Source: an uncultured Eubacteriales bacterium (GTDB lineage: Bacteria; Acidobacteriota; Aminicenantia; Aminicenantales; Aminicenantaceae). From it: a stretch of 64,000 nucleotides of DNA. The DNA is taken from positions 3,582 through 67,581 of the forward strand of contig CAZLBV010000215.1 of the NCBI GenBank assembly GCA_964557845.1, read 5' to 3'. Both the position numbers and the translations under genes were made by a program. Under the pieces are notes generated by a model. It did not search any database and was not told the origin of the DNA. It worked only from the letters and a program-made list of their open reading frames with translations. This document shows, in pieces, positions 4,844 to 54,806 of this stretch. How positions within the stretch are numbered: the first letter of the stretch is position 1; each line of letters starts with the position of its first letter.

Positions 4844-5263
4844 ATGTCAAAAGTCACAAGATTTGGTGTGTCGCTTGATGATGAATTGCTTCATAAATTT
4901 GACGCCTTGATCGAGAAAACTGGTTATTCCAGCCGCTCCGAAGCCATTCGAGACCTGATTAGAAATAGAATGGTAGAAGAAGAGTGGAAAGAGGAAAGTA
5001 CGATTACAGTAGGAATACTCGGCCTTACTTTTGATCATGACGCCCGGGAGCTTACTGAAAAGTTAACCAAGATCCAGCATCAATATATTGATGCTATTGT
5101 ATCTTCTACCCATCTTCATCTGGATTCCCATAATTGCCTCGAGGTCATTTTACTTAAAGGGGAAAGCGGCCTGATCAAAAAGATCGCAGACGAACTTATT
5201 AGCACCCGAAGAGTTAAGCATGGGAAGTTATTAACGATGTCCACTGGCTCACAACTTTCCTGA
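4844..5263 (+). CDS. nikR: nickel-responsive transcriptional regulator NikR
   Basis: 139 aa. The N-terminus is a ribbon-helix-helix (RFGVSLDDELLHKFDALIEKTGYSSRSEAIRDLIR) and the C-terminus is a His/Cys-containing metal-binding domain (HLHLDSHNCLEV). Both are diagnostic of NikR. Confidence 0.85.
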   Translation: MSKVTRFGVSLDDELLHKFDALIEKTGYSSRSEAIRDLIRNRMVEEEWKEESTITVGILGLTFDHDARELTEKLTKIQHQYIDAIVSSTHLHLDSHNCLEVILLKGESGLIKKIADELISTRRVKHGKLLTMSTGSQLS

Positions 5264-5472
5264 ATCATCAGTAAAATAGGCCGATTTGTATCAATCTCTT
5301 TTCAATCTTGGACAAATAGTTTTCAAAATTAAGGAATATTGAATCGGTCATGGTGCTGGTTTAATTTATTATCAGCCTCTTTTACCCCACTGGGGTGGGG
5401 CGCGCTGATGTCAGCCCAAACACGTCAATGCCTCGAGTTCGAGGTGTTAATCATGAAACAAGAAAAAAGATA

Positions 5473-5504
5473 AAGGCTGCCCTTTTATGAAAAAAGGGCA
5501 GCCT
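5473..5504. terminator. perfect 14-bp inverted repeat hairpin (AAGGCTGCCCTTTT-atga-AAAAGGGCAGCCTT), candidate bidirectional rho-independent terminator
   Basis: Read directly from the sequence. The GC core of the stem is flanked by T/A runs on both arms, and a T-rich tail follows on the minus strand (read as TTTATCTTTTTTCTTG). It lies about 210 nt downstream of the nikR stop. Confidence 0.5.
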
Positions 5505-6100
5505 TAAAAGGGGATGGATTAAAAGATTAGGTGATTTATGTAAAATCCTTCGAAAAAAGGAGGGGTTAAAAGGAGGGATTTACATTTTCTGTTGCGTCTT
5601 TCTTTCCTCATTTTTGTCATTCCATATATATATACGCTGGTTTTGGGAAAAAAGTTGCCAATTATGCTTGAAAACAAGAGATTTTTATGTTTTTTTCCTA
5701 AATTAGGAAATTCATTAAAAAATTTGGTCATCAATTTAGTTTTTTAATCATGAAAAGAAATATGAAAGTATCCTAAAAGAAGGGAAATTATACTGTAACT
5801 TGTTGAAAACAAATAATATGTTTTACTTTTCTTATTTGATCTAACCCCTTAACCAATGCTATGAAAATATTATATCATAAATTATTATAAAATATCAAGC
5901 TTTTATTCAAATTTTTTATTATTTTCAATTAATTAGTTTGTTATGGCAGTTTTTTGCCTTATATTGCACCAAATTTACATGTTTTTTTGACTTTATATAA
6001 AAACAACACCTGATCGCTAATTTCTAAAAGAACCTTTGACTTAGGAAAAATGTTATTTTACTATGAATAATCCGGGTAAATTTTTAAGAGGATAAGTAAC

Positions 6101-11890: not shown

Positions 11891-13018
11891 ATGAATGCCG
11901 TCGCTAAACTATTACAGCAGTCGGGATTTGCCAATCTTAGTTGGGGAAATTGGGTTATGTATCTGGTGGGAGGAATTCTTATCTATTTAGCCATAACCAA
12001 AAAATATGAACCGTTACTTTTAATCCCCATTGGTTTCGGGACGGTTCTAGCCAATCTTCCTTTAGCTGAAATGGGTGCTTATGATGATGGTATTATAGCC
12101 CTTATTTACAATCAGGGTATACGGACAGAATTGCTTCCGCCTATAATCTTTTTGGGAGTGGGCGTGCTGACGGATTTCCGGCCTTTATTAGGAAGACCTT
12201 TAACCTTTCTTTTAGGAGCATCGGCTCAATTAGGTATTTTTGTGGCTGCCCTGGGAGCTGCTTATCTTCTTGATTTTAACTTCAAGGAAGCGGCCTCCAT
12301 TGGAATTATCGGTGGAGCAGACGGCCCTACATCAATTTTTCTCTCGAGCCAGCTAGCACCTCATCTCCTTGGACCTATTGCCGTAGCCGCTTACAGCTAT
12401 ATGTCTTTGGTGCCTATTATCCAGCCTCCCATAATCCGCATACTTACGACCAGAAAAGAGCGGGAGATCGATATGCCCCAGGCTATTCCAGTATCCAAGA
12501 CTGCGGTCATTTTATTCCCAATCATTACCGGGATTGTAGCTTCCCTGGCCATTCCTTCCAGTGCGCCTCTGATCGGAATGTTGATGTTTGGTAATCTTAT
12601 ACGGGAGTGCGGAGTTACCGAACGCCTGAAAAAAACTGCCGGTGGAGCCTTGATCGATATAGTGACTATTTTTTTGGGAATCGCAGTGGGAGCAACTATG
12701 GATGCCGGCCATTTTTTAAATCTCAAGACTCTTTATATACTTTTATTAGGCGCTATTGCATTTTCCTTCAGTACAGCAGGGGGAGTGGTTTTCGCGAAAA
12801 TAATCAATATCTTTTTAACCAAAGACAAAAAGATCAATCCCTGCATTGGTGCAGCCGGGGTGTCGGCTGTCCCCATGGCTGCCCGGGTTGTGCAGCAGTT
12901 TGTTTCAAAACATACAGATGGGAAAGTTAACCCTTTGATGCCTGCTATGGGACCGAATGTAGCCGGGGTTATCGGATCAGCCATAGCTGCAGGAGTTTTT
13001 CTCACATTTCTTGGCTAA
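11891..13018 (+). CDS. oadB: Na+-translocating oxaloacetate decarboxylase beta subunit
   Basis: 375-aa polytopic membrane protein with the characteristic OadB/GcdB N-terminus (NLSWGNWVMYLVGGILIYLAI) and conserved motifs. Confidence 0.85.
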   Translation: MNAVAKLLQQSGFANLSWGNWVMYLVGGILIYLAITKKYEPLLLIPIGFGTVLANLPLAEMGAYDDGIIALIYNQGIRTELLPPIIFLGVGVLTDFRPLLGRPLTFLLGASAQLGIFVAALGAAYLLDFNFKEAASIGIIGGADGPTSIFLSSQLAPHLLGPIAVAAYSYMSLVPIIQPPIIRILTTRKEREIDMPQAIPVSKTAVILFPIITGIVASLAIPSSAPLIGMLMFGNLIRECGVTERLKKTAGGALIDIVTIFLGIAVGATMDAGHFLNLKTLYILLLGAIAFSFSTAGGVVFAKIINIFLTKDKKINPCIGAAGVSAVPMAARVVQQFVSKHTDGKVNPLMPAMGPNVAGVIGSAIAAGVFLTFLG

Positions 13019-29563: not shown

Positions 29564-29645
29564 CGGATTTAAATACGGTCTATATATATATCAATGAATC
29601 TGAGAAGGGAACGATCATAGATCTGTTCCACCTCATATTACTTGC

Positions 29646-30116
29646 TTAAATTTTTCTGTATTGTTTTTTCCAGGGTGATTTCTTTTGATAGAGATAATCA
29701 GCCAAAGCCCGGCGTAGTGTTTCCGATGCCAATTGAGCGCAGTGGATGTTTTCTTCGGGAAGCCCTCCCAGCTCTTTCAAAATAACATCGGCACTGATGG
29801 AGGCAAGAGCCTGGTTGAAGGTTTTGTCTCTTGAGAGTTCCGAAACCACACTTCCACAAGCCAAAGTAGCTCCACAACCATCGGTAAGAAAAGTGCATTT
29901 GCTTATTCTGTCATCCTGAAATTTTAAAAAAATTTCCATAGTATCTCCACAGGATCCAGTTACCTTTGCATATCCATCAGGCTGCTCCAGTTTTCCCAGA
30001 TTAAGAGGATGGAGCCACAGATTGATAACCTTATCGGTATAGATCTGTCTGGCTTGCTCCATGATCTGCTCCTGAAGCTGCTGCGTTATTTTTTCTAATT
30101 CCTCGTCTTTATCCAT
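29646..30116 (-). CDS. IscU/NifU-N-like Fe-S cluster scaffold protein
   Basis: 156 aa with the three scaffold cysteines in conserved contexts: GSCGDTMEIFL, TDGCGATLACGS and HCAQLASE. Confidence 0.8.
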   Translation of the reverse strand: MDKDEELEKITQQLQEQIMEQARQIYTDKVINLWLHPLNLGKLEQPDGYAKVTGSCGDTMEIFLKFQDDRISKCTFLTDGCGATLACGSVVSELSRDKTFNQALASISADVILKELGGLPEENIHCAQLASETLRRALADYLYQKKSPWKKQYRKI

Positions 30117-30180
30117 TTTTATTGACTCTTAAAACTTTAGGTTTAAATTAAATATTTAATAATCAGATTTTTAACCTAAA

Positions 30181-30283
30181 GGCGAGTCGATCTTGGCCCA
30201 TTTACTGCATTGCGGCGGGTTCGCAGTGGACAATCACAGCTTCACCCGCTGGCGCCTTGTAACTGGACCAATCTCGACTCGTG
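30181..30283. ncRNA. candidate structured RNA or small palindromic element: ~103-nt GC-rich segment closed by an ~18-bp imperfect terminal stem
   Basis: GGCGAGTCGATCTTGGCC (30181-30198) is the reverse complement of GGACCAATCTCGACTCG (30265-30281), with 2 mismatches and 1 wobble. The interior contains nested complementarity (GCGGCGGG / CCCGCTGGCGC). GC is about 58% against an AT-rich surround. It sits between the IscU-like start (30116) and the DUF4405-like gene end (30409) and is preceded by an AT-rich 9-bp-stem hairpin at 30134-30180. Confidence 0.3.
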
Positions 30284-30408
30284 AATAATCCAAATTAATT
30301 TAATTCATCATTATAACAAAAAATAGTGTTTTTATTGAAATGGAATTACAAATAGTTCTAGATGAATATTTCCCATTTAATGGATATATTTCCATCAGTT
30401 TGGTTCAC

Positions 30409-31281
30409 TTACTTTTTTTGTCTCTTTTGCAACTCAGCGGTTATAAAATCCCTCAATTCTTGTATAGAGAATCCATAACTCTTTCTTAATCTGCCCAGGT
30501 GGTCAAACTCTGAAACATTTGCAGGCAATCCCATTCCCTGGATAATGGTTTTTGTGTTTATTCCGGTTTTTAATTCTATGTCTCTTAAACACATCTGCCC
30601 TGTGATCACAATGCCGGATGTATCTTCCTCCAGCCTTCCATGAACGAGCTTATCTTCATGTTCCTGGGTTTCTTCGTGAAGGTGGACAGCTGGATAACTC
30701 TCAGATTTCACCTCAATTTCTTTTTCTGGTTTCTGCTGGTTATTGGCTGCTCCAGATAAAGACTTTTCCGAGCTCTTACCAGGTACGGATGCTTTTTTTT
30801 GCTGTTCGATAATCGAAGGGGCAGGAGAAGGCACCGGGGCAGGGATCGAAGTCGCAGCCGGCACACTTTGCTCAACAATTCTGGACCTCCCAAATTCTCC
30901 GTTTCTTCTTCCATAGTTGGAATACAAAGGAGAGTCCTTAGGCATGAATGCCCAGATAAAAAAAATGGTAAAAAAAGCAGCTGCTACGGTAAGGCCGATA
31001 ATTAGAGGGGCCTTATTTTTAAATAGACGGCGTGACTGCGCTTTAATCCAGCTCCATTCAAGGATCAGATGAATAATGACTAATGCTGTGAATGCTAGGG
31101 ACAAAATTAGATGAATGTCGCCCCATTGATGCCGGTGCAGACCTAAAAAATATTTTCCCTGGTCATTGACTGTCGGTCCTTCTGCGAGAAAGAAAGCCAT
31201 CAGTATTCCTATAACTGCTATTCCAAAAAGAAATATGAAAAGAAAAGTATCTACCAGATATTTCCATATGTTTTTATTCAT
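30409..31281 (-). CDS. membrane protein with an N-terminal DUF4405-like His-rich transmembrane domain and a C-terminal soluble domain
   Basis: 290 aa with three TM helices and conserved histidines (HRHQWGDIHLILSLAFTALVIIHLILEW), typical of DUF4405 putative haem/cytochrome-b-like modules. A Pro/Ser-rich linker follows, then a C-terminal domain of unknown family. Confidence 0.45.
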   Translation of the reverse strand: MNKNIWKYLVDTFLFIFLFGIAVIGILMAFFLAEGPTVNDQGKYFLGLHRHQWGDIHLILSLAFTALVIIHLILEWSWIKAQSRRLFKNKAPLIIGLTVAAAFFTIFFIWAFMPKDSPLYSNYGRRNGEFGRSRIVEQSVPAATSIPAPVPSPAPSIIEQQKKASVPGKSSEKSLSGAANNQQKPEKEIEVKSESYPAVHLHEETQEHEDKLVHGRLEEDTSGIVITGQMCLRDIELKTGINTKTIIQGMGLPANVSEFDHLGRLRKSYGFSIQELRDFITAELQKRQKK

Positions 31282-54548: not shown

Positions 54549-54806
54549 ATGAACTAGCCTGAACTATTCATAAAAAATGCCGATGGTAATGATGATCTTG
54601 ATAAAAAATCCAGTTTTACAGGAATTTGTCTTATTCCACTAAACTTTTCAACAAGTCCGGTAATTTTAGAAAACGACGAGTTAAGTGCATTGAAGAGGAG
54701 TTTAATACATTTTGTGAAGAGTAGAGTATAGGTAAAAATGGTATAATTCTTGATTGTATTGTCATAAGATCTAGACAAAAATGATACTCGGCATCGATTT
54801 ACAATT

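Follow-up and report, generated by a model that had tools for sequence, protein, structure and literature searches.

The closest described analogue of the sequence treated here is bcr1, one of the Group A bcr repeats of the Bacillus cereus group. This is a non-coding, dispersed, mobile and transcribed element of ~155 bp, with a cruciform-like fold of two stem-loops and with 5-bp direct repeats (PMC3184786). Looser analogues are the ERIC/IRU repeats of enterobacteria and the Correia repeats (NEMIS/CREE) of Neisseria, which are intergenic elements of 100-160 bp with terminal inverted repeats (TIRs) and short AT-rich duplications; they are often co-transcribed with their neighbours as hairpins, and some of them carry promoters (PMC3184786). 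Here we analysed a stretch of 64,000 nucleotides from contig CAZLBV010000215.1 (the window), and in particular a GC-rich hairpin located upstream of an IscU-like gene, for which an earlier note had named a riboswitch or attenuator among the candidates in its headline. From our analyses, this hairpin is very probably a truncated copy of a mobile MITE (miniature inverted-repeat transposable element) that has inserted in the leader of the gene, and not a dedicated riboswitch.

The repeat family to which the hairpin belongs shares with bcr1 its small size, its non-coding nature, its dispersal, its mobility and its short flanking direct repeats, and in both families compensatory changes maintain a predicted RNA structure, the stability of which varies among copies. 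However, there is no sequence similarity between the two, and the present repeat consists of one long rod-like hairpin and an AT-rich module, with 13-nt TIRs and a 3-4-bp duplication. Moreover, the transcription of bcr1 is known, whereas that of the present repeat is putative. The ERIC and Correia elements differ in that they fold via their long terminal repeats and duplicate TA, whereas the hairpin of the present repeat is internal, GC-rich and distinct from the 13-nt TIRs.

The window genes around the element are all on the minus strand. In the 292-nt spacer between a DUF4405 gene and the IscU-like gene, the segment 30181-30283 has a GC content of 58.3%, compared with 20% for the remaining spacer, and folds as a rod-like hairpin of ~100 nt. 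The GC-rich, stem-closed sequence reported previously is therefore present, with its helix, its composition and its folding all confirmed. A 116-nt stretch folds in the sense of the genes (minus strand) with -51.4 kcal/mol (z = -5.93, none of 200 shuffles being equal) and on the plus strand with -47.0 kcal/mol (z = -4.52, again with no equal shuffle), and this stability is far above the chance level. The AT-rich hairpin that had been described next to it also exists, but because the genes are on the minus strand it comes after the GC-rich element and does not precede it. Along the direction of transcription come first DUF4405, then a promoter-like box, the GC hairpin, the AT hairpin and the start of the IscU-like gene, followed further downstream by genes for a radical SAM protein, a DUF6125 protein, a class-IV aminotransferase and TrmO, also on the minus strand. 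In agreement with the earlier note, which had found no match to tRNA or tmRNA, ARAGORN detected neither gene type in the window, and no Rfam family reached its gathering score anywhere in it. A terminator scan found no intrinsic terminators in 29900-30600.

The exact IscU-like protein was found on five contigs, and since the spacer is identical in all of them they represent the same strain. In the homologue search, the closest relative of this protein (92% identical) bears the source name Candidatus Aminicenantes bacterium, by which we judged the host to be an uncultured Aminicenantes-like lineage. Four relatives, here as elsewhere given by locus number, were compared with the window: L013 (92% IscU identity), L014 (81%), L017 (77%) and L018 (78%). 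The order DUF4405, IscU-like, radical SAM is kept in all four, and the DUF4405-iscU spacer is 142-170 nt long in these genomes versus 292 nt in the window. Alignment showed that none of the four has the GC-rich element in its orthologous spacer. The block TTTTTTGTTATAAT is invariant across the five aligned genomes (the window and its four relatives) whereas the rest of the spacer diverges, and the box TGTTATAAT is a likely promoter of the iscU-like operon. After excision of 30175-30298 (124 nt), the alignment with L013 is gap-free at the junction and 83% identical. Relative to L013 the insertion is thus exactly 124 nt, that is, the 120-nt element plus a 4-nt copy of TTAA. Because the element is missing in the relatives and the alignment closes without a gap after excision, we conclude that it was inserted in the lineage of the window. 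This is a presence/absence polymorphism with an identifiable empty site, as known for MITEs, and the covarying conservation at an orthologous leader position that marks a riboswitch was not found.

Six more distant loci with short spacers do not have the element either. A scan of a genome collection with the IscU-like protein returned only distant Desulfobacterota loci, with 35-51% identity; as their spacers are short and do not contain the element, they were of no help for the comparison. Conversely, in L014, L015 and L017 the radical-SAM gene is immediately followed by a copy of the repeat, at a place where the window has none, and their contigs end inside this copy. These copies, together with two fragments of the repeat found elsewhere in the window, indicate that the family is present and mobile in the lineage.

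Dispersed copies were searched for with a 21-nt degenerate pattern covering both arms of the hairpin. Within the window this pattern matched only the element's own two arms, and no match was found in the viral contigs scanned. Metagenome contigs gave 33 loci, of which ~29 bear copies that are 85-94% identical across the full 120 nt by BLAST. The flanks of the copies are unrelated to each other, and the 5' similarity starts abruptly with CCTGGATTATTCACGAG, immediately after (N)TAR. Copies other than that of the window extend ~130 nt further and end in ...TTATGAATAGTTCAGG, followed by (N)TAR. The full-length unit is 250-268 bp long (~252 bp), non-coding and without a conserved open reading frame (ORF). 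In all 14 full-length loci it has the 13-nt TIRs CCTGGATTATTCA / TGAATAGTTCAGG, and in a diverged subfamily, B, the TIRs co-vary (TCTGGATCATTA / TGATGATTCAGG). On either side of the units an AT-rich target, (N)TAR, is duplicated over 3-4 bp; taken as 4 nt, the duplication is perfect in 6 of the 14 loci and agrees at three of four positions in 7 more, with matches at the successive positions in 9, 13, 13 and 12 of the 14 loci.

The copies sit between differing ordinary genes, including those for pyrF, RACo and a heptosyltransferase according to Pfam, and one of them neighbours a 717-aa RelA/SpoT-like ORF, as judged by eye from its translation. By tblastx, the repeat-bearing loci have nothing in common with the window outside the repeat. 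The usual size limit for a MITE, under about 500 bp with no coding capacity, includes this unit, and TIRs, target-site duplications and dispersed copies with unrelated flanks were all observed. With its terminal repeats, short duplications and dispersal between unrelated genes, the repeat therefore has the anatomy of a MITE. The earlier note had offered three explanations, a regulatory RNA in the 5' leader, an independent small RNA and a MITE- or REP-like repeat, and with respect to a miniature element the third was right. Its headline of a riboswitch or attenuator is not supported for an element that is absent from four orthologous leaders and has ~29 dispersed copies elsewhere; the two outcomes which the note itself had named as speaking against a regulatory RNA, no conservation in relatives and multiple dispersed copies, both occurred.

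Of the full-length unit, the copy in the window has only the left terminal repeat and the hairpin module, both the right repeat and the AT-rich 3' module being absent. It scored 145 bits (E = 3e-43) with an nhmmer profile made from 17 full-length copies, and 141.7 bits with a covariance model, R1. The unit of ~103 nt originally proposed corresponds to a real GC-rich segment, but the true unit is 120 nt (30175-30294) and represents the 5' half of the ~252-bp element. Similarly, the AT-rich hairpin had been regarded as separate, and this cannot be maintained given that one of its arms is the terminus of the element plus TTAA and only the other is native leader. At the position of this native arm, L013 reads TTTATCTAAAG. 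This hairpin is a by-product of the insertion and not an independent feature.

When exact seeds were used to search the window for repeats, no further complete copy turned up, and the two other fragments were revealed only by the profile search (Table 1). The first, at 5256-5446, has lost its 5' part but retains the hairpin's 3' arm and, beyond it, both the AT-rich 3' module and the right TIR, and could be aligned with the subfamily-B copies of L040 and L023. The second, at 54554-54649, is ~95 nt long and holds an exact right TIR, CCTGAACTATTCA, at 54558-54570 on the plus strand.

Table 1. Positions of the repeat copies, their parts and the neighbouring genes in the window.
Feature	Position	Strand	Details
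120-bp copy of the repeat (5' half or short form)	30175..30294	-	TTTGGATTATTCACGAG...CGACTCGCCTTTAGG
Target-site duplication TTAA, upstream side in the direction of transcription	30295..30298		Read directly; fits the (N)TAR of full-length copies
Target-site duplication TTAA, downstream side	30171..30174		120 + 4 = 124 nt
Left TIR, degenerate	30282..30294	-	TTTGGATTATTCA, consensus CCTGGATTATTCA; from copy alignments and TIR table
GC-rich rod-like hairpin module	30183..30281	-	Four helices, an apical loop and two internal loops of tandem G·A type
GC-rich closing helix	30183-30205 / 30259-30281 (arms)		23 nt, 83% complementary; repeat search
AT-rich hairpin, chimeric	30135..30181	-	Arm 30169-30181: two native bases, TTAA and terminus CCTAAAG; arm 30135-30147: native
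Arms of the AT-rich hairpin	30135-30147 / 30169-30181		13 nt, 92% complementary; repeat search
Promoter-like extended -10 box TGTTATAAT	30310..30318	-	~16 nt upstream of the element; TTTTTTGTTATAAT invariant in five genomes
IscU-like (NifU_N) gene	29646..30116	-	First gene of the operon whose leader carries the insertion; gene order kept in relatives
DUF4405 gene	30409..31281	-	Upstream of the spacer
5'-truncated subfamily-B copy	5256..5446	-	Model 73-261, 32.9 bits, E = 5.6e-9 (nhmmer)
3'-terminal fragment of the repeat	54554..54649	-	Model 172-262, 30.6 bits, E = 2.7e-8 (nhmmer)

From these observations, a history of the locus can be drawn up. A copy of the MITE inserted at a TTAA site ~16 nt downstream of the TGTTATAAT box, in the DUF4405-iscU spacer and in the lineage of the window strain. 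The enzyme that moved it would have been a cut-and-paste transposase of the DDE type acting in trans, perhaps an IS5/PIF-like or IS1380-like one. In the IS1380 family, ISEcp1 has the left inverted repeat (IRL) CCTAGATTCTACGT and AT-rich direct repeats of 5 bp, for example TAATA and TAAGA (PMC6061673). The termini of this family start with CC, as do the TIRs of the repeat, CCTGGATTATTCA and, in one copy, CCTAGATTATTCA. IS1380 elements duplicate 4-5 bp, to which the 3-4 bp of the repeat would correspond. However, the identity between the ISEcp1 IRL and the TIR of the repeat is only 8-9 of 13-14 positions, and this is a lead and not a test. Among IS5/PIF-Harbinger-type elements, duplications of 3-4 bp centred on TAA or TAG are typical. 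The ends in CC, the AT-rich duplication of 3-4 bp and the partial likeness to ISEcp1 would then point to IS1380-like or IS5/PIF-like enzymes.

The 3' half of the window copy was probably lost by a deletion between an internal TTYAGGT and the identical right terminus with its duplication (TTCAGG+T). In the long copies, CCTTCAGGTAAAA, found right after the hairpin, repeats the right terminus plus duplication (TTCAGG+TAA/TTAA), and a deletion between such direct repeats at the end of the hairpin and at the right terminus would give exactly the junction seen. Alternatively, a 120-bp short form may have transposed as such; one other apparent short form is present at L051 4300-4433. As it has no right terminal repeat, the copy in the window is most likely immobile.

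The inserted copy may be co-transcribed from the promoter-like box, as the conservation of the latter would suggest. In this case the leader would lengthen from ~70 to ~195 nt and gain a hairpin of -51 kcal/mol, and in addition the AT-rich hairpin, in which the terminus of the element is paired with native sequence, followed by UUUU. When the fold of the entire leader is predicted, the start-codon region (AAGAG...AUG) remains free of pairing, and for this reason an effect on stability, processing or partial termination would be likelier than one on the initiation of translation. It is also quite possible that the effect of the insertion on the operon is neutral.

Several points weigh against a MITE insertion as proposed here. 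No autonomous element, that is, a transposase gene between the same TIRs, was found in the 294 kb of collected loci; this search comprised the TIR matches in all loci, the ORFs that adjoin single TIRs in L022 and L050 and a Pfam analysis of five neighbouring ORFs, among which there was no transposase. The target duplication may be 3 bp, since the first of the four positions matches in only 9 of the 14 loci. The copy in the window can be either a deletion product or a short form, its left repeat being degenerate (TTTGG for CCTGG) and its right repeat missing. The metagenome copies that are assignable to a taxon are only those of L014, L015 and L017. Finally, it is from conservation only that the leader is proposed to be transcribed and the promoter to lie at the box.

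We examined the structure of the hairpin module in diverged copies of the repeat (L023 23-286, L023 11885-12010, L038 3859-3975, L038 3984-4110, L040 200-326 and L051 4300-4424). In these subfamilies the architecture is the same and the stem sequences are different. The RNAalifold consensus is a rod-like structure with compensatory changes in 16 of 29 pairs. In a 31-pair version 96.2% of the cells form standard pairs and 17 of the 31 pairs are changed on both sides; none of 500 shuffles reached any of five measures, and in a control with the 3' partners slid by 1-3 columns 27-40% of the cells were paired. U·G wobbles are conserved at pairs 21-98 and 24-95, a third, at 14-106, is common, and two internal loops that are able to form tandem G·A pairs are conserved, along with the unpaired motifs CGAGRTTGG, GTGAAG, CGAA and TGAGATCGG. 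For each of the 25 copies compared, RNA energy parameters give the top strand a more stable fold than its complement (means of -54.2 versus -40.4 kcal/mol). Covariance model R1 detected two further degenerate modules in the collected loci and nothing new in the window. These results argue for structural, strand-specific selection on the hairpin module within the repeat family, and suggest an RNA-level role, or a role of the top strand as DNA, for the family as a whole.

Among the other explanations, the one that survives best is that the mobile element carries the hairpin as a functional RNA, with the window copy as an active instance rather than debris. It could act in trans as a small RNA, serve the transposase as RNA cofactor or regulator, or be a portable signal for mRNA stability or processing which alters adjacent genes, the iscU-like/radical-SAM operon included. 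This is compatible with the insertion of a MITE, and the compensatory changes, the conserved unpaired motifs, the conserved wobbles at two pairs and the consistent strand asymmetry all speak for it, as does a weak bias towards the orientation of the downstream gene (12 loci in the same and 5 in the opposite orientation). There is also a precedent in bcr1, a transcribed MITE-like repeat with compensatory changes (PMC3184786). However, the copies share descent and the counts of compensatory changes are therefore not independent events, the orientation bias is not significant, and tandem G·A and G·T pairs occur and are tolerated in folded single-stranded DNA too. Furthermore, the hairpin matches no known RNA family or protein partner, and the window copy itself has drifted to Watson-Crick pairs, G-to-A changes having removed wobbles, with a strand asymmetry of just 5 kcal/mol, the smallest after that of L029. 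We regard a functional RNA of this kind as rather unlikely.

Strand-specific structure would also be expected of a derivative of a transposon that moves as single-stranded DNA, such as an IS200/IS605-type palindrome-associated element, a REPIN with its Y1 transposase or an orphan TnpB omega-RNA, in which the hairpin would be the recognition structure. The window copy indeed gave a full-length but very weak alignment to the Rfam family IS605-orfB-II (17.7 bits, E = 1.2). This score is far below the gathering score of 88 bits, the full-length copies gave no match to this family, and the stretch CCUUUAGGUU in the Rfam alignment is unique to the window copy, other copies reading CCTTCAGGTA. The repeat also has true TIRs and variable target duplications on both sides, whereas IS200/IS605 elements are not known to have either and insert 3' of a short target that is fixed. 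An omega-RNA or palindrome element of this type was accordingly rejected, and we consider any such derivation very improbable.

Still less credible is a dedicated cis-regulatory leader RNA (a riboswitch, attenuator or thermosensor) of the iscU-like/radical-SAM operon, sensing a ligand or the Fe-S status, which the repeat resembles in its presumed position in the 5' untranslated region, its sense orientation, its very stable fold and a following hairpin with UUUU that could serve as a weak terminator, but from which it differs in that four relatives have retained the operon and the promoter box without the element, near-identical copies lie in both orientations beside unrelated genes, no Rfam family matches and, as the minimum-free-energy and centroid folds agree, no switching structure is evident.

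Other known classes were tried for the repeat and rejected. At the gathering score, a search that also covered 20 related loci gave no Rfam match for the repeat in the window or in full-length copies. At E values of up to 10, the spacer and one full-length copy gave only noise (mir-1502, snoRNAs, CRISPR-DR50, IS605-orfB-II at 17.7 bits and MIR1435). REP and REPIN sequences are palindromes of 20-40 nt, single or in inverted doublets, that have no TIRs or duplication and are linked to RAYT, whereas this repeat unit is ~252 bp long and has both a duplication and TIRs; a search that was not exhaustive showed no RAYT gene. CUGAUGA/CUGAAGA in the AT-rich 3' module of the long copies recalls a hammerhead, but there is no GAA after stem II and no Rfam match. 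The end of the repeat reads GTTAAAA and fails the GTTRRRY core of an integron attC site. No reverse transcriptase adjoins any copy, as it would for a retron, and the GAA/GA loop does not fit a kink-turn, as its bulge has only 1 nt and is found on the wrong side.

Some further observations concern the copies outside the window. The full-length copies at L023 1950-2202, L020 68-318, L049 1518-1769 and L023 27-282 illustrate that such copies are often located 10-74 nt upstream of a housekeeping gene with which they share their orientation, the genes downstream in L023, L020 and L049 being the RelA/SpoT-like ORF, RACo, pyrF and heptosyltransferase. The AT-rich 3' module of the full-length copies carries a -10-like box, GTGATAAT, and an outward promoter is possible. 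Modules or whole copies that are in tandem or directly abut each other (L038 3859-4189, L023 11885-12179, L040 1-326 and L035 1849-2315) suggest insertion beside or into earlier copies. At two unrelated loci, L035 ~2190-2240 and L023 ~12040-12095, a second shared sequence, GGCCATCCC.TGTCC...CCTTC..TCAAGGAA, stands in place of the 3' arm of the hairpin, and is either another repeat or a chimeric subfamily. An extra GC hairpin, the perfect palindrome CCCCACCCACCTAGGGTGGTGGGG, follows right after the main hairpin in L048 and L022 (the same locus) and in L040 at ~200-240; a shorter imperfect version, CCCCACCCCAGTGGGG, occurs at ~5380-5400 of the window, within the 5256-5446 fragment. A terminator-like hairpin abuts this fragment (~5470-5510, minus strand). 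Independently of the repeat, L020 4729-4828 matches the Rfam family PYLIS_3 (pyrrolysine insertion sequence, mttB) with 42.6 bits against a gathering score of 38, on a contig that also encodes the RACo-type corrinoid activator.

The spacer on the other side of the IscU-like gene, before the radical-SAM gene, contains an in-frame remnant (29564-29645, minus strand) of a DUF6485 gene, small and Cys-rich, of which the last ~20 codons are left. The 81% and 77% relatives have this gene in intact form (L014 3408-3611 and L017 3518-3721); its N-terminal Cys-rich part has been deleted in the window lineage, and the spacer is similarly short in the 92% relative, L013.

With respect to annotation, these analyses remove a false riboswitch/attenuator candidate, as what looked like a structured leader of the iscU-like operon is a mobile repeat whose insertion is specific to this strain. 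The MITE family of these Aminicenantes-like metagenome genomes was previously undescribed, and its ends, its target duplication and its modular build are now defined. Contigs that start or stop within or at the edge of the repeat (position 1 of L004 and the ends of L014, L015, L017, L019, L026, L038, L040 and L050) show that it fragments the assemblies of these genomes. Because such repeats break metagenome assemblies and can carry promoters or RNA-stability signals, annotation as well as binning will benefit from knowledge of the family. Should the hairpin indeed be a functional RNA, it would represent a new RNA class tied to an element with TIRs and target-site duplications in an uncultured phylum, and would add a case in which a bacterial MITE is under selection at the RNA level beyond the small number of model groups studied.

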